From positions 6,852 to 70,851 of the forward strand of contig CAWEKC010000001.1 of NCBI GenBank assembly GCA_963809665.1: 64,000 nucleotides of DNA, given 5' to 3'. This document shows, piece by piece, positions 4,494-49,570 of the stretch. Both the position numbers and the translations under genes were made by a program. Source of the DNA: Candidatus Gottesmanbacteria bacterium (lineage in GTDB: Bacteria > Patescibacteriota > Microgenomatia > UBA10105 > UBA927). Positions within the stretch are counted from its first letter, which is position 1; each line of letters opens with the position of its first letter. The notes beneath the pieces are model-generated. The model ran no database searches. It was not told the origin of the DNA and saw only the letters and a program-made list of their open reading frames with translations.

Positions 4494-4495
4494 TT

Positions 4496-26941: not shown

Positions 26942-27966
26942 CAGGTTACATCAGAAAGTAATGCATCAAATGTTTTTGTAAATGTAAGGACGCCAAATCT
27001 TTTTGAACGTTGCATCATTTCTTCCCGCAACCCATTCTGAGCCTTTATATCCTGAACAATATGCAGCGTAATTTCAAGGCATTCATCAGGTGTGGCCCAG
27101 AGGTTGCGGCTGACGATCTCTGACTGTCCCCCGCCGTTGAAAACCACCGGGATACATCCGGCAGACATCGCCTCGACTGTTGTAATACCGAAATGCTCCA
27201 TATGCTCCGGACTGGTCTGCCCAAATCCTGCCGCATGCCAGTACATAAGAGCCTCATTATATAAAGCCGTTAGGGTAGCAAACGTACAATTCGGGAAGAA
27301 CCGTATGGGCAATCCTTTTGCTGCCCGTTTTAATGAGTCAAAGTACGCTTTATCCGCCTCCAGCAACCCTCCTGCAAGTTTAAATTCAAACCCTTCAAGT
27401 TGTTCCGACTTGATTGCCTTCCGGAATATATCAATGAGTACGTCCTGTTTTTTAGCAGGATTAAACCGTCCGACGGAAACGATGACCTTATTCTTTGTAG
27501 TCCGCGTGTGTTTAATCGGTTCAACCGGCGGGTAAATAACAACGGATCGTTTGCCGATACGCGGATCAATATTGTCTTTCGTAAAAAATGAATTGCATAC
27601 AATGGCCTGAAAACGGAGCAATTTTATCGGGTGTACCGGGACATGCTGAAACGGTACCTGAAAATGCAGTATATTCCGTTTGGCAAATGTAGTCGGGATA
27701 CTCCCGTCCGTCAGAAAGAATATGAGGTCGTACCCGCGGCTAACAGCCAATTTTTTAAATACATTTTTGGTTTTAAATACGTTCTCCGTCGTCAGGATCC
27801 GTGTCAGATCAATGTGAAGACGACGTCCGGATTTTTCCAAAATTTCCGGATCATCCCAAAAAAGAAATACATCATGGGATTTCGACCAGTGGGAAGCTAT
27901 GGATAGAAGATACCGTTCCCCGCCGCTCATACTATCGAAGTAGGGACTGTAAAAACCAATTTTCAT
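26941..27966 (-). CDS. GT4-family glycosyltransferase (glycosyl transferase group 1)
   Basis: 341 aa with the GT4 E-x7-E-type motif ..EHFGITTVEAMSAGCIPVVFNGGG.. Confidence 0.7.
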   Translation of the reverse strand: MKIGFYSPYFDSMSGGERYLLSIASHWSKSHDVFLFWDDPEILEKSGRRLHIDLTRILTTENVFKTKNVFKKLAVSRGYDLIFFLTDGSIPTTFAKRNILHFQVPFQHVPVHPIKLLRFQAIVCNSFFTKDNIDPRIGKRSVVIYPPVEPIKHTRTTKNKVIVSVGRFNPAKKQDVLIDIFRKAIKSEQLEGFEFKLAGGLLEADKAYFDSLKRAAKGLPIRFFPNCTFATLTALYNEALMYWHAAGFGQTSPEHMEHFGITTVEAMSAGCIPVVFNGGGQSEIVSRNLWATPDECLEITLHIVQDIKAQNGLREEMMQRSKRFGVLTFTKTFDALLSDVT

Positions 27967-30209
27967 ATGCGTTTCGACAAATAGACTAACCCGGTTGCAC
28001 CGATGACACTAAGTATTATACCCCACAGGAATTCGCCGGGTGTGAATCTGAATTCGACCGTATGTTTCCCGGCCGGTACGGCAACCGCGCGGAAATCGTA
28101 ATCCGCCCTGTACACGGGTGACTGCTTACCGTCAATAAACGCCTTCCAACCCGGATCGAACACATCAGATAGAAATAAAAGTTTAGGCGAAGACGCATCG
28201 GTTTCTATCGTTACTTTATCGGGTGTATACAATTTAATATCAGCTGACCCTGACCCTGCTAGCGGTTCAACAGCAGGTCTTACTTCCAGAACGAGTGAGT
28301 TCCTCCTGTCAAAATCCCGGGCAAATAACGTATCGACTATATCTTTATCGGTTGTTTTCACTGTAAAGGACGATGCTAAAAATGCTCTGGGATATACGTT
28401 ATTATATTCAAATATTTCATACTTTTCATCGCTGTATACCTGATGCATCGATCCGTCGGCCAGGTACTCCCAATACGGAAAGACCCAAGGTGCTCTGCCG
28501 TCGCTGAACCGGTGGTAAATATATTTGATTCCTAAAAGCTGCAGCGCTTCAGTTTTATACACTCCGTATTTATCAAACTGTACGACCGAACGGCCGCCGG
28601 GATAACTATATCCCTTGGATACGGCATTGATGAATTCTCCATACCGCGCCTGGTATACCGCGTCATAACCGTCAACGAGCGGTATGTAAAATTCCGTTCC
28701 CACCTCACCGCTTCCGATATTACCGAAAACCCTGTCGTTGCCGACATGGGATTGAAGATAGGTCAACGATTTCACCTGCGGAAATATATACTTGCGCGGA
28801 TCAAACGGCATCCATTTTATGGCAAACCGGAGGATATCGAATACTGATAATCCAATAAGAGCGGCGATAACAATTATCCGTACTACTATATTCCGGATCG
28901 ATCCCAAAAAGATTAATAATGCTCCTGATACTATCAGCAGGCTCGGCAAAACGAAATTGTGAGTTGCGATAGAAAGCTTGTCGGGCGGTAATGGTTTTCC
29001 AAATAACAAAACCGTCCATGTAATACAGGTGAAACAGAGACACAAAACAGGAAAAACAATATGTAGTTTTTTATTTTTATTCAACCCGTCCAACCCATAG
29101 GCAGACAGAACTGCCAGAGAAAAACTGGTGAGAAGTATAATCCGCGATGCGGCGCTTCCCGAGAGAACGGGAATTTTTAACAGGTAGAGTAAATCATTGA
29201 CGGGCGTGGGCAACGCAAACAATAACGTCAGTATTGCTAGTAATGCAAAAAACCAGACTTCCCGCGATATTTTCTTTGTAATTGCAGAAATAGCCAGCAT
29301 CAACGGTACGACGCCGATAAATCCTGCCCATTCGGCATAGTGACCGAACCAGTCATTTCTCGTAACCGGATTTCCGAAAAAATCCGGGGCTATGAATGTC
29401 AGAAGATATTGCCAGGGTATAACCTCGCCTTTTAATACCGAGTCACTCCTTGATGACAGAGCATATGACCGCAGACCCAAAAGAATTTGCGGTGCGGCAA
29501 GAAGAACGCCGAAGAGAAGAAACCATAATGCCGTCCAATGTTTTTTCCAGAAGATATAGGCTAACGCCGCGCCGATAACATAGATGCTTACCTGAAAATG
29601 ACCGGAGACCAGTGATAATGCGATCCCGAGGCTAACGGCCAACCCGTTCTTTTTGTGAATGCCCCAAAGTATAAGAGGCAGGAACAAGGCGGCGTACCCG
29701 AGAGTACCGTACGCCATCCATACAACCATAAATCCGCAAAACATGAACGCAGTCGCCGCAAGAAGTGACGCTTCCCTGGATCTTTCCAGACTTCTCACAA
29801 ACAGATACATAAACAACCCGGCCAGAAGCGGTTGAAGGAGAATAAGAATGCTCCACGCGTCAATAAAAGGAAGAATAAAAAATAGCAGATTAAACGGGGA
29901 AAACACGGCGCTCTGATAGTTCCCGGCCTGTGCAGTACCGGAAAAGCTATACGGATTCCACAGCGGGACCTGCCCTGACTTCCATGTATCAACAGTCAGT
30001 TTTTTCCACGGGTAAATCTGTGTAATCACGTCCGGCATGGCGTTATTTTTAACCGGCATGCCGTATTCGCTGCTCCACGGAGGAAAAAACGTGGCCAGAT
30101 ACGTGGACGGAAACGGAACCAGCCCCTTAAAAAAATACGGGAAAGAAAAAATAAACCAAAGAAGGACAATAACGGATACCGGCCAAAATTTGTTAAGAAT
30201 GGATTTCAT
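27963..30209 (-). CDS. YfhO-family GT-C membrane glycosyltransferase
   Basis: 748 aa ending ..FLSDVFDPGWKAFIDGKQSPVYRADYDFRAVAVPAGKHTVEFRF.. plus a terminal TM segment. Confidence 0.7.
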   Translation of the reverse strand: MKSILNKFWPVSVIVLLWFIFSFPYFFKGLVPFPSTYLATFFPPWSSEYGMPVKNNAMPDVITQIYPWKKLTVDTWKSGQVPLWNPYSFSGTAQAGNYQSAVFSPFNLLFFILPFIDAWSILILLQPLLAGLFMYLFVRSLERSREASLLAATAFMFCGFMVVWMAYGTLGYAALFLPLILWGIHKKNGLAVSLGIALSLVSGHFQVSIYVIGAALAYIFWKKHWTALWFLLFGVLLAAPQILLGLRSYALSSRSDSVLKGEVIPWQYLLTFIAPDFFGNPVTRNDWFGHYAEWAGFIGVVPLMLAISAITKKISREVWFFALLAILTLLFALPTPVNDLLYLLKIPVLSGSAASRIILLTSFSLAVLSAYGLDGLNKNKKLHIVFPVLCLCFTCITWTVLLFGKPLPPDKLSIATHNFVLPSLLIVSGALLIFLGSIRNIVVRIIVIAALIGLSVFDILRFAIKWMPFDPRKYIFPQVKSLTYLQSHVGNDRVFGNIGSGEVGTEFYIPLVDGYDAVYQARYGEFINAVSKGYSYPGGRSVVQFDKYGVYKTEALQLLGIKYIYHRFSDGRAPWVFPYWEYLADGSMHQVYSDEKYEIFEYNNVYPRAFLASSFTVKTTDKDIVDTLFARDFDRRNSLVLEVRPAVEPLAGSGSADIKLYTPDKVTIETDASSPKLLFLSDVFDPGWKAFIDGKQSPVYRADYDFRAVAVPAGKHTVEFRFTPGEFLWGIILSVIGATGLVYLSKRI

Positions 30210-31866: not shown

Positions 31867-32741
31867 AAAATTTTGTTAAAGAAATTATGAGTTTCTGCGA
31901 GCTTAGTTGTATATATCCAGTACTTCACATCTTTTCCTCCCCGGGCTATTTCGTTCATAACGGAATCCGGAGCCAAATCGCGCTGCGGAAACTTATGCAT
32001 CTCCCAATATTTGGCAAATACCGTGAACGAATAAAATGCCTGAAAAAGTGCAAGCACCAGCCCGTGAAGGCCGTCTTTATATCCCCCCTGGGCAAAATAA
32101 ATTTTCAAAAAATCCGAAAGAGGGAACCGTATTGCGTCGTACCATACGAGTTGGTGGTCCATATCTTTCAGAGAGATCGCTTCGCTTGTAGACGCACGGT
32201 CAATTTTAGTCAGATACTGGTGAACCGTTTCATAATTATAATGAAGATAGGGGTTCTCAAGTTCTCCTACCTGTCCGTCGACGATCGCATATTCATGAAT
32301 GTGGACACAGGCAAATTTCCCTTTTCCCCTCCGGAATAGCCGTACCTGTTTATCAGGCCACCACAATCCGTGAGTAATCCACCTGCCGAAAATGATGTTT
32401 TTCCGCTTTATCCAATACCCGTTTTCTCTGGGATTTGACCGGACAACGGCCTGTATTTCTTTCGATAACTCCTTGGGTATTTCTTCATCAGCATCCAGAT
32501 TCAATATCCAGTCACCCGTCGCTTTATCAAACCCGTAGTTTTTGTTGGTATTCAGCATTAAAATATTCTTTTGAGAGTAAATCTTATCGGTAAACTTTTT
32601 CGCTATCTCAACCGTAGAATCGCTGGATTCATTGTCGACAACGATAATTTCGTCCGCCAGATGGCTGACCGATGACAGACACCTACCGAGTGACTGTTGC
32701 TCGTTATACGCGGACACGACAACGGATAATTTTGATTTCAT
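31839..32741 (-). CDS. GT2-family glycosyltransferase
   Basis: 300 aa with ..LSVVVSAYNEQQSLGRCL..VVDNESSDST..GDWILNLDADEEI.. Confidence 0.7.
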   Translation of the reverse strand: MKSKLSVVVSAYNEQQSLGRCLSSVSHLADEIIVVDNESSDSTVEIAKKFTDKIYSQKNILMLNTNKNYGFDKATGDWILNLDADEEIPKELSKEIQAVVRSNPRENGYWIKRKNIIFGRWITHGLWWPDKQVRLFRRGKGKFACVHIHEYAIVDGQVGELENPYLHYNYETVHQYLTKIDRASTSEAISLKDMDHQLVWYDAIRFPLSDFLKIYFAQGGYKDGLHGLVLALFQAFYSFTVFAKYWEMHKFPQRDLAPDSVMNEIARGGKDVKYWIYTTKLAETHNFFNKILWKLKRKLL

Positions 32742-34195
32742 TGTGATCGGAAACTACGGACAGTATCAACAATACGTTTTTTTTCAAATATCCAAACGAC
32801 ACCTGCATACAGTATAACACCGGCAGATCCGGCGATAATAAGCCATATGAACGAGTGCGGCACGAACCGGAGAAGCACAAAATACAAGATACCCTGAAGT
32901 ACAGAGGCTAGCAGCGCCCCGTATATGCTTTTCCAGAATGAAAATTGAACTTCGCGTTTTACGAGCCAGACAACAATGATAATCGTCGTGGAAACCGACA
33001 GGAATGCCATCGGCACGCCGTTAAATCCGTAATACTTTATAAAGGTTAGGGTAAGAATCCACGTCAGGACGGTCCACATCACCATTAGTCCCAATGTTAC
33101 TTTAATTTTACCTATGGCATTCAGTGCGTTCGTAAGCGGCGTGGTAAGGCCGGCAAAAACTGAAGAAATCGTCAGAATATAAAATGCCAGTATGGCCGGT
33201 TCCCATTTTGCGTATTTCGGGATAATGCCGATGAGAGGTTGCACAAAAAACAATAACCCTACGGAAATCGGAAATATTGCCGTAGAAAGTCCGAACAACG
33301 TTTTTTCAATTGCTGCCCGCAGATGGTCCTTATGGTCCTGCAGCCGTGAAAACGCAGGGAATGTCACGCGGATGACGGAGTCCATAATTAAACGTAACGG
33401 CACCTCTGCCCATTTTTTTGCCCAACCGATATACCCAATCTGTGCAAACGGGAGTACCTTGCCTAAAAATACAGTCAGCAGGTCATCTTTGAGAAGCGCG
33501 ATGAAAGAATTTAACTGGAACGGAACACCGAACCGCATAAGCCTGCGGGCTACATCCCGTGAAAATTTCAGCTGAATCCGCCATGGTGAAATTATGTACA
33601 TGGCTACGAGCCCTACCACTGCCCGCACGATAACTGCCCAGGTGAAGCTCACGATGCCGTACCCTCGCCACGCTAAAATAACTGCGACTAGATAAAATCC
33701 CAATGTCTCCAGTATCTGAGGAATGACCAGCCTGTTGAAATTGAGTTTGCGCTCCAAAAGGATGGAGGGGATGGTTTTAAGCGATGAGAGGAAAAAAGAG
33801 ATAATAAGCGCCCTCAACAGCCATAATCCGGTGCCGTCCAGCCCGTAAAAGGTACTGATCGTTCGGGAACTGACGAGCGCGATAATAACAACGGAACCGA
33901 CGAGAATTTGCTGGATGGTAAAGGTTGTACTTAAGTCCTCAGGCGTCAGGATTTCTTTTTTCTGGATGAGCGCTGCGGCAAGACCGATATCGGAAAAATA
34001 TCCCAGAAAATTAATAACAGCCGACACCACATAAAATACTCCGAAGATCTGCGGGCTTAAAAATATTGTCAAAAGAAATGTTGCTGCAAACGCGATAACC
34101 TGCAATAAAAACGTTCGTGATGTAAGTGCAACAACACCGGTTAACGATCGCTTTTTCACCAACGCAATATCTATTTCTTCCATAAGCGTCTCCAC
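32738..34195 (-). CDS. Wzx-like polysaccharide/teichoic-acid flippase (MOP/PST family, Polysacc_synt)
   Basis: 485 aa, about 12-14 TM helices, with the characteristic N-terminal ..LTSRTFLLQVIAFAATFLLTIFLSPQIFGVFYVVSAVINFLGYFSDIGL.. Confidence 0.65.
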   Translation of the reverse strand: METLMEEIDIALVKKRSLTGVVALTSRTFLLQVIAFAATFLLTIFLSPQIFGVFYVVSAVINFLGYFSDIGLAAALIQKKEILTPEDLSTTFTIQQILVGSVVIIALVSSRTISTFYGLDGTGLWLLRALIISFFLSSLKTIPSILLERKLNFNRLVIPQILETLGFYLVAVILAWRGYGIVSFTWAVIVRAVVGLVAMYIISPWRIQLKFSRDVARRLMRFGVPFQLNSFIALLKDDLLTVFLGKVLPFAQIGYIGWAKKWAEVPLRLIMDSVIRVTFPAFSRLQDHKDHLRAAIEKTLFGLSTAIFPISVGLLFFVQPLIGIIPKYAKWEPAILAFYILTISSVFAGLTTPLTNALNAIGKIKVTLGLMVMWTVLTWILTLTFIKYYGFNGVPMAFLSVSTTIIIVVWLVKREVQFSFWKSIYGALLASVLQGILYFVLLRFVPHSFIWLIIAGSAGVILYAGVVWIFEKKRIVDTVRSFRSQ

Positions 34196-34914
34196 GGCCG
34201 CGTCTTAAACAGTCTCCATAGCCCGGCAAGATCTCCCTGAGCCGTTTTCATAACACGCACGGTTGACCCTGGATTATCTATCCATGTCACCGGTTCTTCG
34301 TATATCCGGTACCCGATTTTTTCCGCAACTATCAGGAGCTCCGAATCGAAAAACCATGCGTTATCTTCGATGTGCGGAATAACGTCCCGGATAACTCTGC
34401 GCGTGACTGCCTTGAATCCGCACTGTGCGTCGCTGAAGTGAACCCAGAAAAACAGTTTAATGAGAGTTATGTATGTTTTTGACGTTAAGGTCCGCAGCAA
34501 CGTTCTCCCGTACACCCGAGATCCTCTGGCGTTGCGTGTACCAATCGCGATATCATATCCCCTTGTAAGCGCCCGTACGAGCGGCGGGAGGTGTTTTAGG
34601 TCAGTGGACAGATCAACATCCATATATGTTTCAATATCGGCATCATCGGTTGACCAAACCTGCTTAACCGCCCTGCCGCGGCCTTTCTTGGGAAGATGGA
34701 CATAGGAAACCTCGGGAAATTTTTGACTGAGTTGTTTGGCAATGACAAGCGTTTTATCTTTTGAAGCGTTATCAGCAACCGTAATGTGCCATGAGAAATC
34801 GGGTAAGTGATTCCGCAGGTAATCACGAAGCGTCCCGACGCTTGCAGCAAGCTCTTTTTCCTCGTTGTATACCGGAATAACGATATTAACTGACGGTTTT
34901 TTCGCGTTTATCAT
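34171..34914 (-). CDS. DPM1/CsbB/GtrB-like GT2 polyprenyl-phosphate sugar synthase
   Basis: 247 aa with ..VNIVIPVYNEEKEL..ADNASKDKT..DVDLSTD..QCGFKAV.., matching polyprenol monophosphoglycosyl transferases. Confidence 0.7.
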   Translation of the reverse strand: MINAKKPSVNIVIPVYNEEKELAASVGTLRDYLRNHLPDFSWHITVADNASKDKTLVIAKQLSQKFPEVSYVHLPKKGRGRAVKQVWSTDDADIETYMDVDLSTDLKHLPPLVRALTRGYDIAIGTRNARGSRVYGRTLLRTLTSKTYITLIKLFFWVHFSDAQCGFKAVTRRVIRDVIPHIEDNAWFFDSELLIVAEKIGYRIYEEPVTWIDNPGSTVRVMKTAQGDLAGLWRLFKTRPWRRLWKK

Positions 34915-36550
34915 ATAAGTAAAAACATATTCCCAGCGAAAGGAGGCTTATGATATTCCCAATCCGGCGTACGGGTGTATCCCGGAATTGCATCTGCACC
35001 ACACTGCCATTCGATGGTATGGGAATAACCGGCAAACCATTTTGAATCATTGGTTTTGTATCCGTAACATTAACAATATAATTCCACCCCGGAAAATACG
35101 CCGTGTTTATCCGAACAGCCGTCGGTTCTTTTGCCTCGAATGCAAACTTGTCATATACATCCGTCAGCTGCTGGATTTCCACAGTGTACAGGTCCGATTT
35201 CGGTATTGTATCACGCGCGATATCCTGCGGGTTTTTTGGTCTGGGTACTGCCGGTGGTAAATATTCATCGGATATTTTGGACACCCGAAAACTGATATCC
35301 TCTTTAGTCTCAAAATCGCTTGCCGCCCGGCTGTACGTATATTGAGGGATAAACCGTTTTGTTTCAACGAACAACGTAGCGGAAACCAGAAGTATTACTA
35401 TGCCCCACCGTACCATGGCCGGCCGGAAGAGATATGCGGCCTGACTGATAACGAGTGAGATCCCGAATATGGCAAACGCCAGAAACCGCCATGGATATTG
35501 AACAAAGGCAAAAAACGGAAGAATGTTCCAGATAGGTTCGGAAATATTCAGCATAAATAATACCGAGATTCCAAAAACCGCCATGCCTGTTGCGACGAGT
35601 ATTTTTGACTTTTTACCGCGCAACAACCCAGGCAATATACTTACTACCACTCCAAGTGCGACAAGAAGATGCTCTTTGCCCACTTTAAATGACAGGCCGT
35701 CCAGACACCCTTTTGCAGATCCGCCGAAACCCCATGGCGAATTCCATAACTGTGAAAGACACACAAAATGATCGCGGAAATTCGATCCGCTGTTGATTTG
35801 TCCCGCTACATTGGTATATCCCATTTCCCATAAAGCGGGAAGCCAGAAAAATGCTGCGAGCCCCAGACCCAAAAGTACGATAATCCAGATATTTTTCAGC
35901 TGTCTTTTATCAATAAATTTTTTTAGATATCCTGCGCTCAAAACTACGGCAGCCAGACCAACAAAAAACATTCCCACATAGCCCAAAATTGTATGGGATA
36001 CGATAAGTCCCGCAGTACCGGCCGCCGCTAAAAGTATTCCACCGGTTACAGATTTGCGTGTACAAATCCGCCAAAAACCCCAGAGGATAAGCGGCAAAAA
36101 AATAAGCGCATAATATTCCCCGACAGCACCCCGGACGTACGCCTGTACGGCATGGTACGGAGCAAACATATAAAATACAGCGCCCAAGACCCCTGCAGAG
36201 ACCCCCGAAATTTCAGCAAGGGCCGCATACATGACTATTCCCGACAGAACCAGCCCGGCCCCCATCATAATTTTGGTAGCAGTAAGACCGGTCAGTCCCA
36301 ATGCATACAAAGCGCCGCCCACGTAGTACGGCAGCGGTCCGTAGAAATTAAAAATGGGATACCCGTATCCGTACCCGAGATCCGAAACCCAGCGGACCGG
36401 AAATTGCCCTTCGCGGAGTGCCCTTCCCATCTCTACAACCCGGGCAACCTGTGTATCATCGTGCATGGGAAAATATCCGGAAGACAACAGTGACCGTATC
36501 ATTAAAAACGAGCACGCAAGAACGATAATTAACCCGGCTATTTTTTTCAT
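34886..36550 (-). CDS. PF10131-like ('PTPS-related') polytopic membrane protein, presumed GT-C-like
   Basis: ORF 34886-36589, with start preferred at MKKIAGLIIVL. N-terminal ..HDDTQVARVVEMGRALREGQFPVRW.. and a C-terminal beta-rich domain plus a terminal TM. Confidence 0.55.
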   Translation of the reverse strand: MKKIAGLIIVLACSFLMIRSLLSSGYFPMHDDTQVARVVEMGRALREGQFPVRWVSDLGYGYGYPIFNFYGPLPYYVGGALYALGLTGLTATKIMMGAGLVLSGIVMYAALAEISGVSAGVLGAVFYMFAPYHAVQAYVRGAVGEYYALIFLPLILWGFWRICTRKSVTGGILLAAAGTAGLIVSHTILGYVGMFFVGLAAVVLSAGYLKKFIDKRQLKNIWIIVLLGLGLAAFFWLPALWEMGYTNVAGQINSGSNFRDHFVCLSQLWNSPWGFGGSAKGCLDGLSFKVGKEHLLVALGVVVSILPGLLRGKKSKILVATGMAVFGISVLFMLNISEPIWNILPFFAFVQYPWRFLAFAIFGISLVISQAAYLFRPAMVRWGIVILLVSATLFVETKRFIPQYTYSRAASDFETKEDISFRVSKISDEYLPPAVPRPKNPQDIARDTIPKSDLYTVEIQQLTDVYDKFAFEAKEPTAVRINTAYFPGWNYIVNVTDTKPMIQNGLPVIPIPSNGSVVQMQFRDTPVRRIGNIISLLSLGICFYLYDKREKTVS

Positions 36551-38073
36551 TTTTTCCGCTTTCTTACGAGCACGGTTATACAATACCAAATCAGGAATCC
36601 TAATGAAATATTGTCAGCTAAAAATCTTGATATGGTCTCCCTGAATCCGGCAACCATACGATGTGTCCCCTGCGGGACGGCAACCCGCATGAGCCCCTGC
36701 GGGTTCTTATAATCAATACGGACGGGAGCATCATCGATGGAGACCCCCCACCCGGGATAATACTCCGTATTTATTTGTACAATACTGTCCTCGTTGGCAA
36801 TTACGGTAACGTCAAAGGACTGTGTAGATATTTTTTTCACATCAAACGTGCCGGCGCCTTTATAAAAAATAAGCTTCTGGTACGCGCGTTGGGTAGGTGG
36901 TTGACTGACCCATCGCGGCATATATTCATTCTGTACCGTCGTGGTCGCCTCGTTTGTCGAGTAATACCCATCGGGTAAATCGGTGTACTGTATTTTTTGT
37001 AGGGCCACAAGGGATGACCATACCCCGAATGCAATAAAGAGAACCATCAACGGCACCCGTAAAAATGTCCGCAGAGAGTTCAATACGTACCCCACCAACC
37101 AGCATTCTATGAGTATTGTTACTGATAACAATCTGTATGGGAATTGGATAATATGTGCCAGGAGATCCCACCGCCACAGAAAAGCGCTGAACGGCAAAAC
37201 CATGAACAACGTAAAAATAAAAGAAAGTATAAAGAATGTCTTTTCCTTCAGCGATTTCCGGATAAATACCGCAATGCATGCAGCAGCTATCCCGGAAAAT
37301 CCTAACAACGTCACGTTCGCAGCGGTAATAAAATATGCGGCGGGATTTGCAACGTTAACCGCATCAAACACCACGTATTTACGTTCATAGAGAGCCGGAA
37401 ACCAAAAAAACATCGCCATCCCTACCCCGAGGAAAACCATGAGCCAATTATCGCGCCACCGGCCGATTGCGGTAATATACAGGATGTAAAATCCCAAAAA
37501 AAGAACGGCGAGCGAATTATGACTCACGATGAGAAGTGACACAGCAAGTGCCAGCAGCCAGGATTTTTTCGCGGCAATCGAGTACAAACCCATCGCCGCC
37601 CACGCCAGTGCCAGGATTTCTCCGACCGATCCGCGGGTATACAGATCAAACAATACATACGGAGCCGTAACAAAACAGATTGCGCCTACCGCACTTTCCA
37701 CAGAACGGAAATATTGTTTCAGCCACATGAACGTAAAATACGAACCGATAAGCACTGACAGCCCGAAAATAATCTTGACGGACGTAATGAATGAGAATCC
37801 GATAACATGAATGAGTGAACCGATATACAAAAAGCCCGGGTAAAGGAAATTCGCAACCGGATAGCCGTAACTGTAATTTAATCTCCCAAGGAAACGCACG
37901 GGGAATTGACCTTCACGGAAACTTTGGAAAAAAGCACTCAACCGGATAATCATCCAACCGCCGTCATCGGAGACGAAAAAACCACGGTGAAAAAGTCCGG
38001 ATAGAACAAAAAGGGCAAAACCGAACACGGTAAGCAGGGATAGGGCAAGAATGATCAACTGATGCCTTTTCAT
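36547..38073 (-). CDS. PF10131-like ('PTPS-related') polytopic membrane protein, presumed GT-C-like (tandem paralog)
   Basis: 508 aa with ..SDDGGWMIIRLSAFFQSFREGQFPVRF.. Stop/start overlap with 34886-36550. Confidence 0.55.
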   Translation of the reverse strand: MKRHQLIILALSLLTVFGFALFVLSGLFHRGFFVSDDGGWMIIRLSAFFQSFREGQFPVRFLGRLNYSYGYPVANFLYPGFLYIGSLIHVIGFSFITSVKIIFGLSVLIGSYFTFMWLKQYFRSVESAVGAICFVTAPYVLFDLYTRGSVGEILALAWAAMGLYSIAAKKSWLLALAVSLLIVSHNSLAVLFLGFYILYITAIGRWRDNWLMVFLGVGMAMFFWFPALYERKYVVFDAVNVANPAAYFITAANVTLLGFSGIAAACIAVFIRKSLKEKTFFILSFIFTLFMVLPFSAFLWRWDLLAHIIQFPYRLLSVTILIECWLVGYVLNSLRTFLRVPLMVLFIAFGVWSSLVALQKIQYTDLPDGYYSTNEATTTVQNEYMPRWVSQPPTQRAYQKLIFYKGAGTFDVKKISTQSFDVTVIANEDSIVQINTEYYPGWGVSIDDAPVRIDYKNPQGLMRVAVPQGTHRMVAGFRETISRFLADNISLGFLIWYCITVLVRKRKK

Positions 38074-39587
38074 ACTCCATGTACCGGAGAAAGTACCTCA
38101 TACAACCGCAGAAACTTCACGGTATTCTGCCCCTTTTGATACTGTGCAATAAGCGTCATAGGCCACGGCGGAACATTTTGTTTCTCGTTGAAAACCATAA
38201 ACGTCGGGGTTACTTTTGCCTGATCTATCATCTCCTGCGGTATATCGCTCGGTATCGGGTATATTCCTTTAATAGTAATATTCGGGTTATCCACAAGATA
38301 CAACTCTAAGGCATACGGCAGGAGACCAAACGTGCCGTCGGTATAGACCGTTATTTTTCCTTTCAAGGACTGATCTAATAAAAATGCATTCACCTGACTG
38401 ATGCCCCAGCCCGCCGGCCAATCATTGATATATTGTCCGGCGTCTGCATCCGGGATCGGAGCATACACCGGATTGGTAATAATATAATAATCCGCATAGA
38501 AGCTTCCGAAGAAAAGTATAACAACAAACACCCATCGCCACACAGAACCTTTAAAATGATCCCAGATCCATGCGACTGCCACGGCAGAGAGAATCATGAG
38601 CGGAAGAATCATAAATAAGATAAACCGCGGATACAGTACTTTTCCATCCAGGGCGAGAGCAAAAAACGGAGCGAACCACCAGCCCAAAAGCAGTAATTTT
38701 TCTCTGGGAAATTTCCATAATGAAAATCCGGCAAACATAGCACTGAAAAATATAGGCCAGGTTAAATAATTGATAGCCCAGTCAAAAAGGCCATGAATAT
38801 TCCCTATAAGGAAATTGAACGGGTGGGTAAGCCATTCTCCGAGCGGGTATACAAACAATGCGTTTTTTTGTTCTATCATGCCGAAAAGCGGAGAGAGCCG
38901 CAGTACGCTATACAGGAGTTGTGATATTGCCGCGGCCAGACACACATATACGATCCAAAGCATCACCCGTTTTACCCGTCCTGTATGCCGCCAGTCGAAC
39001 AAAAGAAGTGTGCCCGGCAGCATGTACAAACTTAAGAATCCTGACGTCTTATTGAGCATTCCCATGCCCAGTGTTAATCCGAGAAGTAATGCTACATCCA
39101 GCCGCAGACGGCGTACAAGAAGAATCGCTAAGTAGAGGTTCCAGATGGAAAATGCCGCAACCCACGAGTCATAGAGTGCCATGCGGTCATAGAAGAGACC
39201 AAACGGAATAATAATATACAGAAAACTTGCAATGAAGCTTATTTTTTTACTTTTGAATAACTCCTGTGCGGTAAACCATATCCCGATTGTCGTGAAGATT
39301 CCGGCTATGACGGACACTAAGCGCCCGGCTAACAAGGGGTCACGGATAAACCGGAGGAACACCATCATTATCCAGGTAAATAGCGGCTGTTTTCCGTCTA
39401 CCAGTGAGATAAACCGCCAGTTTGCGTCACGGCTTCCTATCTGAGACCAACGGATATAAATAGCCTCATCCGTAAATATCGGTAGCTTCGTGAGGTTTGT
39501 GAGCCTGGTAATAAGATAAAGCGCCGCCAGACCGGCGATGAGAAGTAGAAGACGAACCCGCCAGCGCCTGAATATAGCCATATTCAA
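38070..39587 (-). CDS. ArnT/PMT_2-like GT-C membrane glycosyltransferase
   Basis: 505 aa with ..LPIFTDEAIYIRWSQIGSRDANWRFISLVDGKQPLFTW.. Confidence 0.6.
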   Translation of the reverse strand: MNMAIFRRWRVRLLLLIAGLAALYLITRLTNLTKLPIFTDEAIYIRWSQIGSRDANWRFISLVDGKQPLFTWIMMVFLRFIRDPLLAGRLVSVIAGIFTTIGIWFTAQELFKSKKISFIASFLYIIIPFGLFYDRMALYDSWVAAFSIWNLYLAILLVRRLRLDVALLLGLTLGMGMLNKTSGFLSLYMLPGTLLLFDWRHTGRVKRVMLWIVYVCLAAAISQLLYSVLRLSPLFGMIEQKNALFVYPLGEWLTHPFNFLIGNIHGLFDWAINYLTWPIFFSAMFAGFSLWKFPREKLLLLGWWFAPFFALALDGKVLYPRFILFMILPLMILSAVAVAWIWDHFKGSVWRWVFVVILFFGSFYADYYIITNPVYAPIPDADAGQYINDWPAGWGISQVNAFLLDQSLKGKITVYTDGTFGLLPYALELYLVDNPNITIKGIYPIPSDIPQEMIDQAKVTPTFMVFNEKQNVPPWPMTLIAQYQKGQNTVKFLRLYEVLSPVHGV

Positions 39588-39588
39588 A

Positions 39589-40725
39589 TTATACCTGAGG
39601 CCGCTTTGATGGGCAAATGAGGTTTCGGACGCCTATCCAGACAAGAGAAAGAAGAATAGGTATGATTACGAACCAGAATTTCAGGATTTGCACCGGGGGA
39701 TCGTAGTTACCGGTGTATAAAAACGGTGCGTAGGTGAGAAGAAAACCCAGAGAGGCGCCTGTACCAACGATTGTAAGCCACTTCGTACGGGGAAGAAGCG
39801 CATACCACGGGATGAACCAGATGAGGTACCACGGGAGTATTTCACGTCTGGTAATAATAATAAAACCGGCAAACCCGATTGCCGTTGCCACAATCGACCA
39901 TTTCCGCTGCCAGCCTATTAAAAAGAGCGGTATGAGACTTATAGTCATTATCTTCGTCGCCGCTGAGCATGATAGAAGCACAAATGATGCAAGCCGCTTT
40001 TTGTGCAGATATACATAAAACGACGTTACTGCAAATGCCATCATGATCACGTCATAGTGGCCGCTCACAAGCGTTTCAAAAATGACTAAAGGATTCAGCG
40101 CAAACACGGCAGTTCCGTACAGTGCATGATCGGGTTCGAGATCGGAAAGTATTTTCCAGATAAACCATGCGGTTACCAGATACCCTGCAGCCATAAGTGC
40201 TTTAAAACTCCATAAAATTCCCAGAAAATAACCAAAACCAAGTAGGTATGCCGGCAGAGACAGTGTTATCCAGAACGGCATAAACGTGCTGGGTATATGC
40301 GTCCAGTGCATAAATGAAAGCCACGGTTCAACACCGCTGAATTGAAGAGGAATAACCATATACGGAATTTTGTGATATACGAGAACCGTTTTTGCATCGA
40401 ACATATAATTAAATATGTCATAGGAAAACGCGGGGTAAGAAAATATTAAAATGATTGTCACGACCAGAATGATTCTTCTTAAAACCTGAAACGTCAGCTT
40501 TGTATTTAGCGCCCAAATATAAAGAATAAAAAAAGCCGCGACTAATCCCACAAACATACCTGTCGCCACGGGCCGCTGGAAATACCCGATATATTGGAAA
40601 CTTTTTTCAATCGTTTGATAGATGCTCAGTCTTGACAGTGTGAGTGAAAGATCTACCTGTGTGTAGGAAAATAAGAAAAGTGCAATCGCCGCAAGTACAT
40701 ATCCGATAGATAATTTTTTAGCCAT
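39589..40725 (-). CDS. DUF2029/GT87-type polytopic GT-C-like membrane protein
   Basis: 378 aa, about 10 TM helices. Intact paralog of the frameshifted 404-1547 gene. Confidence 0.5.
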   Translation of the reverse strand: MAKKLSIGYVLAAIALFLFSYTQVDLSLTLSRLSIYQTIEKSFQYIGYFQRPVATGMFVGLVAAFFILYIWALNTKLTFQVLRRIILVVTIILIFSYPAFSYDIFNYMFDAKTVLVYHKIPYMVIPLQFSGVEPWLSFMHWTHIPSTFMPFWITLSLPAYLLGFGYFLGILWSFKALMAAGYLVTAWFIWKILSDLEPDHALYGTAVFALNPLVIFETLVSGHYDVIMMAFAVTSFYVYLHKKRLASFVLLSCSAATKIMTISLIPLFLIGWQRKWSIVATAIGFAGFIIITRREILPWYLIWFIPWYALLPRTKWLTIVGTGASLGFLLTYAPFLYTGNYDPPVQILKFWFVIIPILLSLVWIGVRNLICPSKRPQV

Positions 40726-41470
40726 ATAATCCCTGCCATGCGTTTATCCGGATTTTAAGAATATCCATAAGCCCCTGTACGGAATCAATAACGGGATTCA
40801 CGCGGCGGGTCTCGACATAATGCCATTCCACCGGCACTTCTTTTATCTTATACCCGAGCTTTCTGGCCAAAAACAAAACCTCAATATCAAATCCCGCCGT
40901 CACCATGGATCCGCTCACCGTATGCCGTGATCCATACAATTTAAGACGCTGAAAAATATCATGGGCTACAGACGAACGGAACGCCTTAAAACCGCACTGC
41001 GTATCCACGATACCGTGAAGTCCCAAAATGCTGCCCCGCAGCACCATAAATCCCCGTGCCATAATCCGCCGTGTAAGCGGGGCGCCCTGTCTACGGCCGC
41101 TGCGCGACCCGATCACCACATCATACCCTTTCTCAAACCACGGAAGGATATTTTTTATCTCAGTAATCGGAGTAGCCTGATCAAGATCGGTAAACAATAC
41201 GATCGCACCCCGGCTCCCGAGCATGCCGGTAATGACCGTGGATGCTTTTCCCTGATGCGGATTGTGTATGACGGAAAACCCCGGGTTCGCTTTTACAAAG
41301 GCATCCAGTAACACGCCGGTCCCGTCAGTCGAACCGTCATCCACAATAATTGCTTCCCATGTATACGTCGCCCGCTCCAGGAATCGCGATACTTTATCAA
41401 GAGCCCCCAAGCGGATATTGGTTTCTTCATTATACGCAGGAATGATCACGGATAAATCAACTTTATTCAT
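40718..41470 (-). CDS. DPM1/CsbB/GtrB-like GT2 polyprenyl-phosphate sugar synthase
   Basis: 250 aa with ..LSVIIPAYNEETNI..VDDGSTDGT..DLDQATP..QCGFKAF.. Confidence 0.7.
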   Translation of the reverse strand: MNKVDLSVIIPAYNEETNIRLGALDKVSRFLERATYTWEAIIVDDGSTDGTGVLLDAFVKANPGFSVIHNPHQGKASTVITGMLGSRGAIVLFTDLDQATPITEIKNILPWFEKGYDVVIGSRSGRRQGAPLTRRIMARGFMVLRGSILGLHGIVDTQCGFKAFRSSVAHDIFQRLKLYGSRHTVSGSMVTAGFDIEVLFLARKLGYKIKEVPVEWHYVETRRVNPVIDSVQGLMDILKIRINAWQGLYG

Positions 41471-41472: not shown

Positions 41473-43008
41473 TTACACACCGGTATAATGGACCAGCTTA
41501 AATATTTTAACAAACGGTACGTCCCATTCTCCGACAATCTCTGCTCTGCCAAACCCTGCTATTTCCCATAGAGGATGCCCGAGCGGCTTGCAGTCGGATA
41601 ATTCGCAAATGACAATGAGCTGATCCGTCACCGTGGTTCGTTTGGGATCCACCTGATCATTCTCTATCGTAACCGGGGCGCGGTGCGCAATCTCAAAAAA
41701 ATACCGGTAGGTGTGGTCGGAATTTGATCCGGTGATAAGGGCGAAATTAAATGGTTTACCGCCGGTATGCGCCAGCGCCGTCTGGGCAATCAGTCTCGAC
41801 TGAGCCAACTGATTATTCGGGGGATATAAAAACGGCCTGCCCTGCCAGTTAAAAAACATGAGCCATCCAAAAAAAATAAGCGCAGGTATCTTGCCGTACT
41901 TTGTCTTCCATACTGCATAGACGACAAGACCGATAAGCAGGAACGGCAGCGTAAACAGTATGCCGAAATAGTAATCATAAATTGCTTTTTGATAAAAACC
42001 AAACAGAAGGACGACTGTAGAAAACCAGATAAGCAATAATTGAGCACCGTGGTATAGCCGGGCTTTATTCGGTATCCGGTAGATTAACAGTACGATAAGA
42101 AATACATAGCTGATAAATATCGTTGTCCGCGTACCGATAAACCATGCTGTGAGCGACCAGGGCGGTAAAGATTTCCACAATGCACCGTCCGGAAGACGGT
42201 ATAAAAGTCGTCCGAATAACCGGAACACTACATCGTCAATCGTGGTAAAGAATCCCGGTGCGAAACCCGTATCATTACCGGAGGTGACAAACCGGATGAC
42301 GGATTGGGTGTTGGGGAACCCGTGACGCACCTCGAATGCCAAAAACGGCGAATATCCAATGAGAAAACCGACAACAACCCACAGTACGCTTTTGAGAAAC
42401 GGAACTGTTTTCGCGCTCACAATCAACCAGATACCCGTCACGGCAAAAAGAAAAATAAAAAGATAGTGTAGCTGCAATCCGATCCCCAGAACCACGCCTG
42501 CCCAAACAAGCATCGAGGTCCGTTTCTTTTCAACGGCGAGCCATAGTAAATGTATAAGTAGCAGTGAGAAAAACGGCACCAGATTCGGATTCCATGACGA
42601 ACGGGAATACGCGATGACGAGCGGCGAAAGCGCATACAGGCTAGCCGCAATAAGTCCTGCCGTCGGGCTGATGAATTCTTTCCCGACTTTAAACACAAGA
42701 TACACGGTTGCGATTCCGAAAAGAGCCACCATAATAGCCGGACCGACGGGATTGAGATTCCATGCCCACAAAAACGGAAGCATAAAATAATAATAAATGG
42801 GACCCAGGAAAAACCCCCCGACAGAGGCTGTGGGCCCTAGGAGCGTGAATTTATGGTTCACGATCATGTGCATGACGACGAGAACATCACGCCCTTCATC
42901 GCCCAAAAATGTCATATAACCGGAAATCTTAAACAACCGGAGGTACGCGGCGAAACCAAGAATGATAATGAGTGGGATAATAAACCAATTTTTTTTCAAG
43001 AAATTCAT
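41473..43008 (-). CDS. ArnT-like GT-C membrane glycosyltransferase
   Basis: 511 aa. Paralog of 4496-6055 (see the motif there). Confidence 0.65.
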   Translation of the reverse strand: MNFLKKNWFIIPLIIILGFAAYLRLFKISGYMTFLGDEGRDVLVVMHMIVNHKFTLLGPTASVGGFFLGPIYYYFMLPFLWAWNLNPVGPAIMVALFGIATVYLVFKVGKEFISPTAGLIAASLYALSPLVIAYSRSSWNPNLVPFFSLLLIHLLWLAVEKKRTSMLVWAGVVLGIGLQLHYLFIFLFAVTGIWLIVSAKTVPFLKSVLWVVVGFLIGYSPFLAFEVRHGFPNTQSVIRFVTSGNDTGFAPGFFTTIDDVVFRLFGRLLYRLPDGALWKSLPPWSLTAWFIGTRTTIFISYVFLIVLLIYRIPNKARLYHGAQLLLIWFSTVVLLFGFYQKAIYDYYFGILFTLPFLLIGLVVYAVWKTKYGKIPALIFFGWLMFFNWQGRPFLYPPNNQLAQSRLIAQTALAHTGGKPFNFALITGSNSDHTYRYFFEIAHRAPVTIENDQVDPKRTTVTDQLIVICELSDCKPLGHPLWEIAGFGRAEIVGEWDVPFVKIFKLVHYTGV

Positions 43009-43015: not shown

Positions 43016-44155
43016 TCAGCCCGAGGCTGATCCGCCTTTGGCGGACTTCCATATTACTTTTGAATAGATAACGTAATTCCAGATAAGAAGAAATCCCGTG
43101 CCCAAAAGGAAAAATTCAAAGTACCACCGGTCGCCTAGGAGTCGGACTCCCAGCCAAATACATCCGGTTTGTATGACAACGACGCCGAATGCACTCGTTG
43201 CGTAAAACTGCGCCAGCTTACCGACATATTGTCCGATACCTTCTATTTTATGATGCCGGAACGTCCACATATTATTCAAATTAAAGTTAGAAAATATGGC
43301 AACGGCCGCCCCGGCGAGATTTGCCCATGTCGCCGACCAATTCAGGTTGTGTAGTACCACTAAAATAACTGCATTAATAATAAATCCTATACCCCCCACG
43401 ACAAGAAACTTACCGAACGGACCGGTAACTATCTCCCGGAATTTTGTTACGGCGATAAATTGGAAAATATTCAAAATATACTCAGCGGGGGCGATCTTAG
43501 AATGTCCGAACCGCCTGTCGGTAAATTGTATCGGGACTTCGGTAATCTTCGCCCCGTCATGGATGGCACTGTGAAGAAACGCGATCTGAAACACGTATCC
43601 GCCGTACCCTTTCACCTTTTCTTTGTTATCCAGATAATACTTTTTTGAATAAGCACGGTACCCTCCGGTCCAATCGTGAACCCCTGTGTGCCAAAGTCCG
43701 AACCGTACGATACTATTGCCTATGACACTGTATATTTTCCGTATTAATCCCCAATTACCCGGTATTGAACCGCCACGGATATATCTGCTGCCGACGACAA
43801 AATCAGCCCCGTTGTCTATTGCATGCAAAAACTCCGGCGCGGTATCCGGATCATGGGACAAATCAGCATCCATCTGCAATAAAATTTCCGCATGTAACTG
43901 ATTAATTGCATACGTCATGCCCCGCAGGAGCGCTTTCCCTAAGCCCTCTTTTTTACCCGAAATAAGGTGCACGTTCCCGTGTGTTTGTTGGTATTTTTTT
44001 ACTAAGTCTCCCGTCCCGTCGGGTGATGTATCATCCACGACCAGGTAGGAAATTGTGTGCCGGTTGACCGCTTTCATTACCGTTTCAAGGCGGTCAAGAA
44101 GCACAATAATATTTTCTCGTTCGTTATACGTGGGAATAATAACGACAACCTTCAT
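43016..44155 (-). CDS. DPM1-like GT2 polyprenyl-phosphate sugar synthase fused to a C-terminal GtrA-like four-helix membrane domain
   Basis: 379 aa. N-terminal ..VVIIPTYNEREN..VDDTSPDGT..QMDADLSHDP..GGYRAY.. C-terminal ~120 aa with four hydrophobic helices (..FLVVGGIGFIINAVILVVL..YFATSAFGVVVIQTGCIWLGV..), the GtrA/GtcA flippase-type module. Confidence 0.65.
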   Translation of the reverse strand: MKVVVIIPTYNERENIIVLLDRLETVMKAVNRHTISYLVVDDTSPDGTGDLVKKYQQTHGNVHLISGKKEGLGKALLRGMTYAINQLHAEILLQMDADLSHDPDTAPEFLHAIDNGADFVVGSRYIRGGSIPGNWGLIRKIYSVIGNSIVRFGLWHTGVHDWTGGYRAYSKKYYLDNKEKVKGYGGYVFQIAFLHSAIHDGAKITEVPIQFTDRRFGHSKIAPAEYILNIFQFIAVTKFREIVTGPFGKFLVVGGIGFIINAVILVVLHNLNWSATWANLAGAAVAIFSNFNLNNMWTFRHHKIEGIGQYVGKLAQFYATSAFGVVVIQTGCIWLGVRLLGDRWYFEFFLLGTGFLLIWNYVIYSKVIWKSAKGGSASG

Positions 44156-46448: not shown

Positions 46449-47303
46449 TTATTGTACCACAAATTCCTGCTTTTTAACCTCCGCTATTCCTTCCCTGAAC
46501 GAATGCATCACAACACCCAATGCTTTAATCTTATCATTCCTCAGCGCGGCGTACTGCGGGGCTGGCGCGCGGTTTGCAAACATTTCGGCAAACGTCGACT
46601 TCTCAACTAATCCCGTGTTGTACTCGAATATTTCTGCAATGATAGAAGCGGCTTCATAGGGGGTGAGGGGGCTGCCGACCACATGATACATACCGCTGGC
46701 TCCTACTTTCACCAAAACGCGGAGTGCCGCTGCTATGTCGTCAATGAATGTCGGCGCAAATATCTGATCGGTGGGCGCGCTAACTATCTCACCGGCCTGC
46801 ATCCGTTCAATCATTTTATGAACAAAATCCTTTTTACCGACCGGATGGGCACGGTATGGATTCGAGATTCGGATAACTAATCCTCCTATCGCAAGTACCC
46901 GCTTTGCTCCTTCTGTCTTCGTTTTGGCATACCATCCTAAAGGATTAGGTGTATCTTCTTCCGTATACGATTTATTCTTCCCATCAAACGCATAATCGGT
47001 ATCAATATACAAAAGTCGTTTATTAAGTTTTTTACAGATATCAGCAATATGCTGGGTCGCTTCGACGTTTACTTTCCAGGCTATATCTTTCTCGGTTCTT
47101 TCTGCTCCCTGGACATCCGTGTACGCCGCCATATGAAATACCCATGGAGCGTCGGTCTTTTCAAGACGCGCCGTCACACTTTTGACGTCAGTAATATCAA
47201 CGCCGGTGTCCGGACTTAAATTCTCAAAGGTGAATTCGGGGGCCAGCATCTGCGTCACACGGGAACCAACCAATCCCGATAATCCGGTTCCCAGAATATT
47301 CAT
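46449..47303 (-). CDS. rmlD: dTDP-4-dehydrorhamnose reductase
   Basis: ORF 46449-47366, with start at the internal ATG at 47301-47303 (MNILGTGLSGLVGSRV) giving an ATGA overlap with rmlB. Conserved ..YIDTDYAFDG..PLGWYAKTK.. Confidence 0.7.
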   Translation of the reverse strand: MNILGTGLSGLVGSRVTQMLAPEFTFENLSPDTGVDITDVKSVTARLEKTDAPWVFHMAAYTDVQGAERTEKDIAWKVNVEATQHIADICKKLNKRLLYIDTDYAFDGKNKSYTEEDTPNPLGWYAKTKTEGAKRVLAIGGLVIRISNPYRAHPVGKKDFVHKMIERMQAGEIVSAPTDQIFAPTFIDDIAAALRVLVKVGASGMYHVVGSPLTPYEAASIIAEIFEYNTGLVEKSTFAEMFANRAPAPQYAALRNDKIKALGVVMHSFREGIAEVKKQEFVVQ

Positions 47304-48316: not shown

Positions 48317-48340
48317 AAAAATATTAAAATTAACTTTTGT

Positions 48341-49548: not shown

Positions 49549-49570
49549 AGAGCGTGCTCCTTTCGAAGAG

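Follow-up and report, generated by a model that had tools for sequence, protein, structure and literature searches.

We analysed a stretch of 64,000 nucleotides (hereafter the window) from a Candidatus Gottesmanbacteria bacterium (GenBank assembly GCA_963809665.1, contig CAWEKC010000001.1, positions 6,852 to 70,851 of the forward strand), and focused on two adjacent genes of its glycan locus, named here famA and famB. Their products are paralogous membrane proteins for which a GT-C fold is predicted, which share a near-invariant set of polar residues and whose gene order is kept across related genomes. We consider it likely that both are GT-C glycosyltransferases, forming a short branch of the PF10131/YfhO lineage, that would move lipid-linked sugars to an envelope acceptor, donor and acceptor being what we infer below.

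The famA/famB gene pair and its paralogs

Four copies of the family were recorded in an earlier account of the window (hereafter the preliminary description), one of them as decayed. Using famA and famB as queries against the whole window, tblastn returned exactly four loci (34889-36550, 36550-38073, 2864-4493 and 3-407), which correspond to the following features:

34886-36550, minus strand: famA, open reading frame (ORF) with ATG start, 554-aa GT-C-fold membrane protein, PF10131/YfhO-like
36547-38073, minus strand: famB, ORF, 508-aa paralog of famA without Pfam match
2858-4493, minus strand: third paralog, disrupted, H-D-G subtype (tblastn high-scoring segment pairs in frames -3 and -1)
1-407, minus strand: fourth paralog, N-terminal 135 aa, H-D-G subtype (tblastn), cut by the window edge

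FamA and FamB are paralogous over their full length: they align end to end at 24 % identity (BLASTP, E 1e-39), and the profiles built from their respective orthologs align with an E-value of 5e-94 (hhalign). The 554-aa start of famA is also the one used in the public annotation (NCBI/ENA) of an identical sequence, an alternative TTG start located 39 nt upstream giving 567 aa. Although this identical sequence is present in the protein database, the best match returned for FamA was only 80 % identical, because a 45-aa fragment stands for its whole 90 % cluster, i.e. a database artefact. The third paralog is indeed disrupted: its frame shifts near 3820-3900, a TGA interrupts it in frame at 3107-3109, and its 'NTVYFPDW' (YFPDW) motif lies in yet another reading frame. 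No stop codon separates its C-terminus from the following gene, a GT2 that is likewise frameshifted.

Predicted fold

AlphaFold2 models were built from alignments of 31 (FamA) and 35 (FamB) sequences and were confident, as they reached a mean predicted local distance difference test score (pLDDT) of 84.7 and 88.4, respectively, with a predicted TM-score (pTM) of 0.88 for both. When these models were compared with the PDB using Foldseek, the top 18 (FamA) and top 20 (FamB) matches were all GT-C enzymes, most of them with a probability of 1.00 (range 0.97-1.00), with E-values from 5e-5 to about 1e-3 and TM-scores of 0.41-0.47. STT3, AftD, AglB and ArnT came first for FamA and AftD, STT3, ArnT and PglB for FamB; the top matches across both models comprised STT3 in oligosaccharyltransferase (OST) complexes, AftD, AglB, ArnT, AftA, PglB, ALG9/ALG12, DPY19 and Pmt1/Pmt2. 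Among them, AftD gave the lowest root-mean-square deviation (rmsd), i.e. 5.4 Å for FamA and 7.1 Å for FamB (6.4-6.6 Å for entries of AftD mutants). The GT-C core that the preliminary description expected from structure prediction and Foldseek is thus found in both models. The solved GT-C structures (AftD 6w98, ArnT 5f15, STT3 6ezn and 8pn9, AglB 3waj, PglB 5ogl) resemble FamA and FamB in the fold of the transmembrane core, whereas sequence identity with them is only 12-16 % and the outside domains differ; the C-terminal domain of the models gave local Foldseek matches to beta-sandwich side domains of glycoside hydrolases.

Conserved residues, motifs and membrane topology

Conservation was assessed on an alignment of 143 family representatives clustered at 50 % identity. 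D31, R37, P51, R53 and G63-Y64-P65 (FamA numbering) are each found in at least 141 of the 143, and a wider polar set (D31, R37, R53, K93, R140, E145, H186, Q351, R355 and E429) is kept in at least 136. The segments in question are located as follows:

36389-36466, minus strand: FamA first outside loop motif, M29-W54 (MHDDTQVARVVEMGRALREGQFPVRW), directly after the first transmembrane helix, with near-invariant D31, R37, P51 and R53
37891-37971, minus strand: FamB first outside loop motif, S35-F61 (SDDGGWMIIRLSAFFQSFREGQFPVRF), with D36/D37, R44, P58 and R60 invariant in 35 orthologs
34904-35188, minus strand: FamA C-terminal outside beta-sandwich (residues 455-522) and transmembrane anchor (526-549), from AlphaFold2 secondary structure and hhalign to YfhO
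36553-36873, minus strand: FamB C-terminal beta-sandwich (residues 401-477) and transmembrane anchor (481-507), from the AlphaFold2 model and hhalign to YfhO

Topology was derived from the AlphaFold helices, hydropathy and the distribution of Lys and Arg. Both proteins would have 11 transmembrane helices, followed by an outside beta-sandwich and a twelfth, C-terminal anchoring helix, and both termini would lie in the cytoplasm. Models and hydropathy agree on the about 11 helices previously counted, plus the anchor, and the C-terminal beta-rich extracytoplasmic domain described earlier is present in both models: after the eleventh helix, an outside segment of about 125 residues ends in a sandwich of seven to eight strands. 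In the modelled topology, the first outside loop is about 65 residues long (23-87 in FamA), includes an amphipathic helix and carries the near-invariant D31 (141 of 143), in line with the long first loop with acidic residues sought by the preliminary description. In this topology, obtained from the model and the positive-inside rule, all near-invariant polar residues map to outside loops or to the outer ends of helices, a pattern as expected for a GT-C active site that would bind a polyprenyl phosphate, with an acidic residue just after the first transmembrane helix.

The two motifs by which the preliminary description had defined the family fared differently. The C-terminal (Y/F)PGW motif is shared, whereas the N-terminal one is a loose consensus: FamA reads M-H-D-D-T-Q-V and FamB S-D-D-G-G-W at this position, and 'HDGxxH' fits only the copies at 1-407 and 2858-4493. 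As to its location, given earlier as cytoplasmic or in the first loop, the second option was retained and the cytoplasmic one rejected, since the motif comes after the first transmembrane helix, across the membrane from the Lys/Arg-rich loops.

FamA residues 256-291 (window about 35678-35785) form an insertion in the fourth outside loop that is missing from FamB. Confidence of the model is lowest here (pLDDT below 50 at residues 271-285), and the insertion contains two cysteines in the context HFVC...GC, of which C282 is invariant and C264 is kept in at least 90 % of FamA orthologs. This insertion may be a disulfide-stabilised acceptor loop.

Family placement

Matches to existing family models are weak for the window proteins and clearer for their relatives. 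The best Pfam match of FamA was PF10131 (PTPS_related), with 19.7 bits (E 3e-4; cut-off 26.4) over profile positions 1-276 of 621 only, and YfhO (PF09586) scored 17.5 bits (cut-off 28.5); FamB had no Pfam match at E ≤ 0.01, and no NCBIfam model matched either protein. Among the 31 FamA orthologs, 28 matched PF10131 at E ≤ 0.01, 20 of them at about the gathering level (E ≤ 3e-6; best 4.9e-12), and 11 matched YfhO at E ≤ 0.01; for the 35 FamB orthologs, the corresponding counts at E ≤ 0.01 were three and six. The distant relatives P0241, P0242, P0243, P0257 and P0376 exceed the PF10131 cut-off, with 31-104 bits. The earlier 'PF10131-type' label is borne out by the FamA orthologs and these relatives, but it is weak for the two window proteins, FamA staying below the cut-off and FamB without a match.

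Profile comparisons with the YfhO paralogs of the window link the same proteins to YfhO at both ends. The FamA profile aligned with them over the first 240 residues with a probability of 88 % (hhalign, E 3e-6), and the C-terminal modules of FamA and FamB aligned with the YfhO C-terminus at 96.1 % (E 3e-9) and 97.7 % (E 2e-12), respectively. What FamA and FamB lack is the large outside region of YfhO: about 125 outside residues follow their eleventh helix, and the window YfhO proteins have 740-800 aa.

Homolog searches returned 2140 (FamA) and 1026 (FamB) matches. Almost none of these carried a name, and those that did were assigned to Gottesmanbacteria, Woesebacteria or 'Patescibacteria group'. 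A joint family profile, searched against 1.84 billion cluster representatives, recovered 23,742 clusters (50 % identity) at E ≤ 0.001 and 7,128 at E ≤ 1e-30. The best 150 matches of this profile fall into three motif classes, i.e. H-D-D-T (FamA), S/T-D-D-G-x-W (FamB) and H-D-G (the window copies at 1-407 and 2858-4493). NCBI gives some relatives the name '6-pyruvoyl-tetrahydropterin synthase-related protein'; these come from Patescibacteria, from Dehalococcoidales and from other Chloroflexota. The pterin-synthase function implied by the name PTPS_related was considered and rejected: no PTPS domain was matched and the models are those of polytopic membrane proteins. For this family, the name is a misnomer.

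The preliminary description had proposed a candidate new GT-C clade. PF10131 is already listed in the GT-C clan of Pfam, CL0111 (PMC7801869), so that the clade is not new, and the homology to YfhO ties the family to an experimentally studied GT-C enzyme. We regard FamA and FamB as a short-form branch of the PF10131/YfhO lineage that is known, up to now, mostly from Patescibacteria. The short-form subfamily, its conserved tandem arrangement and its fusions appear to be undescribed in the literature searched, and the finding leaves the current understanding of GT-C enzymes unchanged.

Conserved neighbourhood across genomes

The neighbours of famA and famB in the window that matter for the comparison across genomes are as follows:

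27963-30209, minus strand: bona fide YfhO-family GT-C of the same operon (PF09586, 69.9 bits)
32738-34195, minus strand: Wzx/MOP-type flippase (PF13440, 180 bits), directly downstream of the next GT2
34171-34914, minus strand: GT2, candidate polyprenyl-phosphate-sugar synthase, 247 aa, no transmembrane segment (PF00535)
38070-39587, minus strand: PMT_2 (ArnT/PMT-like) GT-C (PF13231, 48 bits)
39589-40725, minus strand: GT87-type GT-C (PF09594, 26.3 bits)
40718-41470, minus strand: second DPMS/ArnC-type GT2 (PF00535; PDB matches DPMS at 6e-12, ArnC and GtrB; NCBIfam PgfS and Dol-P hexose transferase)
41473-43008, minus strand: PMT_2 GT-C (Pfam)
43016-44155, minus strand: GT2 fused to a GtrA/DPMS transmembrane domain, full-length DPMS/GtrB-like (PF00535 and PF04138; NCBIfam ArnC, AglJ and PgfS)

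Consecutive genes overlap by ATGA between the PMT_2 stop (38070-39587) and the famB start, by ATGA (4 nt) between famB and famA, and by 29 nt between the end of famA and the GT2 at 34171-34914, all of which fits the translational coupling claimed earlier. The best PDB sequence matches of this GT2 were the Pyrococcus furiosus DPMS (4e-16), ArnC and GtrB, and its best NCBIfam matches were PgfS, Dol-P hexose transferase, ArnC, AglJ and PpgS, all far below the equivalog cut-offs.

Synteny was surveyed on 80 genome loci harbouring FamA relatives at 37-76 % identity, the counts below referring to 78 loci; the named records belong to Gottesman-, Levy- and Shapirobacteria. The order PMT_2-GT2-GT87-PMT_2-famB-famA-GT2-Wzx-GT2 x3-YfhO is kept almost throughout, including, in most of the related loci, the position of the Wzx-type gene behind the GT2. 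In 72 of the 78 loci, down to 37 % identity, only a few bases lie between the famA stop and the start of a DPM/ArnC-type GT2, and a family paralog lies immediately upstream of famA in 73, with the 4-nt famB/famA overlap kept in 47 of these 73. The divergent downstream GT2 of Levybacteria had ArnC as its best PDB match (E 3e-15). Many metagenome-assembled genome records titled 'uncultured Gammaproteobacteria bacterium' (L004-L006, L009-L010 and others), and one titled 'Bacteroidia', display the Microgenomates-type arrangement in full; their titles seem to reflect mis-binning or a wrong taxonomic label.

The H-D-G subfamily served to collect a further 80 metagenome loci, which are likewise GT-C-rich clusters. 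What comes behind FamB and members of this third subfamily is usually another paralog or a gene without match to the window reference set, the latter being the usual case for lone H-D-G members. In loci L084-L087, L090, L094, L095 and L116, about 2.2 kb behind such a lone member match no window reference protein, and a weak match to a GtrA-type GT2 lies beyond. Within the window, the GT2 next to the disrupted copy is of the GT2x3 type and not DPM1-like. Adjacency to a DPM-like GT2 is therefore a property of the famA position rather than of the whole family: the earlier statement that family members always sit beside a DPM1-like or GT2 gene stands for FamA-type members (72 of 78 related loci) and fails for FamB and the third subfamily.

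Natural fusions

Several relatives combine family domains within one chain. P0241 (1116 aa) is an in-frame fusion of an H-D-G-type half followed by a FamA-type half, P0242 (1093 aa) consists of two tandem family domains, and each shows two PF10131 stretches; P0376 joins a PF10131 domain to PMT_2, and P0243 (3329 aa) carries YfhO, two PF10131 stretches and PMT_2. Fusions of paralogs are topologically allowed because both termini are placed in the cytoplasm, and they hint at joint action of the paralogs. P0458 was also among the fusions seen, and a fusion of PF10131 with a methyltransferase domain occurs in the set made up of P0241, P0242, P0243, P0376 and P0458.

Another group, large and widespread, of Patescibacteria proteins of about 800 aa (P0397-P0440, e.g. 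P0404) combines an N-terminal cytoplasmic GT2 with a PF10131-like GT-C domain carrying a Q-D-D motif; these are predicted to be bifunctional glycosyltransferases working inside and outside the membrane. Their use as Rosetta-stone proof of the DPM1 link was rejected, as the fused GT2 is generic (TarS/EpsD/rhamnosyltransferase-like) and not DPM1-like. Such fusions speak for a connection with glycan synthesis, but not with polyprenyl-P-sugar synthases in particular.

Proposed function and alternatives

By analogy with the systems compared below and from the gene order, a route can be proposed. A soluble DPM1-like GT2 (34171-34914 and/or 40718-41470 or 43016-44155) would use a nucleotide sugar to attach the sugar to polyprenyl phosphate on the inner side of the membrane. 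The lipid-linked sugar would then be flipped by the adjacent Wzx-type protein or by the GtrA-like domain of the GT2 at 43016-44155, after which FamA and FamB would each transfer this sugar to an envelope acceptor on the outer face. In both enzymes, the invariant Asp after the first transmembrane helix would serve as catalytic base or metal ligand, and the invariant Arg, Lys and His may hold the polyprenyl phosphate. FamA and FamB probably act in succession or as a pair in a multi-step outside assembly line together with PMT_2, GT87 and YfhO enzymes, the product of which would be either a glycoprotein or a surface glycopolymer, in which rhamnose may be present. Acceptors of YfhO-family enzymes include teichoic acids (PMC5836110, PMC8035078), and those of PgtC2 and PgfM1 are Ser/Thr-rich protein tails (10.1101/2024.05.05.592596); by this analogy, a wall or membrane glycopolymer and Ser/Thr-rich protein tails would be the candidates here. 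The rhamnose genes upstream favour a polysaccharide product, albeit weakly.

Of the earlier proposal that the family are lipid-linked-sugar glycosyltransferases, the GT-C fold and the DPMS/ArnC/GtrB-type GT2 behind famA in 72 of 78 loci speak for it, with the restriction that this adjacency concerns FamA-type members. Several further points weigh against the function that we favour. The Foldseek TM-scores are moderate (below 0.5) and the rmsd values large, and the FamA alignment profile gave only chance matches against PDB sequences, i.e. no sequence relative with a solved structure. Neither window protein reaches the Pfam cut-off of PF10131 or that of YfhO. The GT2 at 34171-34914 is devoid of the transmembrane segments of DPMS, GtrB and ArnC. 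The 72 of 78 loci are not independent events, because they come from related Microgenomates genomes, and the H-D-G members of the metagenome set do not lie directly beside a DPM-type GT2, so the adjacency expected across genomes was found behind famA and not for this subfamily. Finally, as the preliminary description had assumed of this family, no functional or biochemical study of any PF10131 member was found in the literature searched.

A bolder version, which we hold to be rather unlikely, is that FamB and FamA together make up an obligate GT-C enzyme of two subunits, central to an outside assembly line specific to Patescibacteria. In this line, most of a surface glycopolymer would be built by a series of polyprenyl-P-sugar-dependent GT-C enzymes (PMT_2, GT87, FamB/FamA, YfhO) served by three dedicated DPM-like synthases. 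Hints in this direction are the gene order kept across Gottesman-, Levy- and Shapirobacteria, the 4-nt overlap in 47 of 73 loci, the in-frame fusions of FamB/FamC-like with FamA-like halves, and the fusions with PMT_2 or GT2 domains. If true, it would mean that ultra-small bacteria use a logic in the style of mycobacterial lipoarabinomannan and arabinogalactan synthesis.

It is improbable that FamA and FamB work as oligosaccharyltransferases, ligases or polymerases, transferring en bloc to a protein or polymer an oligosaccharide built on polyprenyl diphosphate by GT2 and GT4 enzymes and flipped by Wzx. STT3, AglB and PglB do appear among the top structural matches, and the operon encodes, besides a Wzx-type flippase, several GT2 and GT4 enzymes not of DPM type that could build such a lipid-linked oligosaccharide; however, the matches to AftD and ArnT, whose donors are of the polyprenyl-monophosphate kind, are just as good, the WWD(Y/W)G motif is absent from both sequences (no WWD), and the outside domain is a beta-sandwich of about 70 residues instead of the STT3/PglB C-terminal domain. 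Moreover, YfhO, the homologous family of known function, uses C55-P-monosaccharide donors, and the most conserved neighbour is a DPMS/ArnC-type GT2.

We regard as even less probable that one or both paralogs are non-catalytic, i.e. a GT-C-fold subunit that binds acceptors or acts as a scaffold for a neighbouring GT-C, like PIG-U in the glycosylphosphatidylinositol (GPI) transamidase. The same near-invariant Asp/Arg/Glu/His set on the outer face is present in all three subfamilies, which is unexpected for a pseudoenzyme, even if PIG-U is among the lower-ranked FamB matches, if tandem pairing and natural fusions suggest a complex, and if small GT-C enzymes were proposed to need acceptor-binding partner proteins (PMC8035078). 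Membrane proteins unrelated to glycosylation (e.g. transporters), with a GT-C likeness due to a modelling artefact, are hardly credible: transporters of the major facilitator superfamily type came far down the Foldseek lists (probability 0.05-0.2, TM-score about 0.1, vs a probability of 1.00 for GT-C), and the profile links to YfhO and PF10131, which are independent of the models, and the glycan-locus context point the other way.

Glycan gene content of the window

The first 49 kb or so (1-49600; about two-thirds to three-quarters of the window) consist almost entirely of glycan machinery, mostly on the minus strand. In the direction of transcription, dTDP-rhamnose genes (46449-49608) and a UDP-glucose dehydrogenase are followed by the GT2-GtrA/DPMS fusion (43016-44155), PMT_2, the DPM-like GT2 (40718-41470), GT87, PMT_2, famB, famA, the DPM-like GT2 (34171-34914), the Wzx-type flippase, three more GT2, YfhO, GT4, and further YfhO and PMT_2 genes. 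GT-C genes amount to about 20 (about a dozen PMT_2-type, four YfhO-like, two GT87-like and four PF10131-like), accompanied by three DPM-like GT2s, other GT2 and GT4 genes, the Wzx-type flippase, RmlABCD and UDP-glucose dehydrogenase. The flippase candidates are the Wzx-type protein (32738-34195) and the GtrA/DPMS transmembrane domain of the GT2 at 43016-44155; a GtrA encoded on its own was not identified.

Two further minus-strand genes without Pfam match could be related to these groups: 13636-15858 (740 aa) is 33 % identical to the window YfhO paralogs, and 4496-6055 (519 aa) is a distant PMT_2 paralog (26 % identity to 41473-43008), relatives of which often lie just upstream of H-D-G-type members in the metagenome loci. 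The PMT_2 ORF 9328-11142 (minus strand) and the YfhO ORF 11022-13424 (plus strand) overlap by about 120 nt at their 5' ends, so the true start of one or both probably lies further in; this region holds some of the few plus-strand genes of the locus. Runs of pseudogenes would be unusual in a streamlined genome. At 400-4550, frame disruptions affect three consecutive genes, i.e. the third paralog, a GT87-like gene (428-1496; frame change near 1240) and a GT2x3-like gene (2098-2839; frame change near 2625), and this run either stems from assembly errors or represents a duplicate of the main cluster that is decaying.

Comparison with known systems and significance

A close studied parallel is YfhO, a GT-C enzyme that works with a GT2 and a flippase and transfers GlcNAc from C55-P-GlcNAc; reviews predict further divergent GT-C enzymes of this sort (PMC5836110, PMC8035078). 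In the YfhO-CsbB-GtcA systems of Bacillus subtilis, Staphylococcus aureus and Listeria monocytogenes, the GT-C is paired with a polyprenyl-P-sugar GT2, as presumably at famA (PMC5836110, PMC8035078). The famA locus thereby shares with multi-component transmembrane glycosylation systems (GtrABV or CsbB-GtcA-YfhO type) a GT-A enzyme of the polyprenyl-P-sugar synthase type encoded next to the GT-C. The N-terminal transmembrane core of YfhO and its C-terminal beta-sandwich with transmembrane anchor are homologous to those of FamA and FamB, and true YfhO genes occur in the same operon. In contrast, YfhO has about 740-860 aa vs 508-554 aa for FamA and FamB, which are without most of its large outside domain and, unlike it, carry an H-D-D or S-D-D motif directly after the first transmembrane helix. 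Unlike CsbB-GtcA-YfhO also, the GT2 partner of famA has no transmembrane segment and the flippase candidate is Wzx-type rather than a free-standing GtrA/GtcA.

The streptococcal Pgf system (PgfS with PgfM1/PgfM2) and GtrB with PgtC2 likewise combine a GT2 with YfhO-type GT-C enzymes having outward catalytic residues, and Pgf has two GT-C paralogs per cluster, like famA and famB (bioRxiv 10.1101/2024.05.05.592596). PgfS is the best NCBIfam match, far below cut-off, of both DPM-like GT2s in the window. The acceptors of Pgf and PgtC2 are Ser/Thr-rich disordered protein tails, PgfM1 and PgfM2 are long YfhO-domain proteins, and no orthology is detectable. The 'Connected component 27' of Durairaj et al. 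(bioRxiv 10.1101/2023.03.14.532539), recognised from predicted structures, is a large 'dark' GT-C family of bacteria without annotation, YfhO-like and also related to STT3 and PglB; its median length is 665 aa (508-554 aa for FamA and FamB), and it may overlap with the family described here. In the heteromeric GT-C pairs Pmt1-Pmt2 and EmbA-EmbB, two paralogous GT-C enzymes work together; the famB-famA tandem (73 of 78 loci) and the fusions may point to a similar pair.

Most bacteria of the candidate phyla radiation are uncultured, and little is known of their envelopes, by which they probably attach to host cells. The about 20 GT-C genes of the locus suggest a surface glycan built largely outside the membrane. 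As the family is very large (23,742 clusters) and devoid of functional studies in the literature searched, a single characterised member would annotate many genes, and the placement of FamA and FamB provides candidate donor-enzyme pairs and a set of residues open to mutagenesis.

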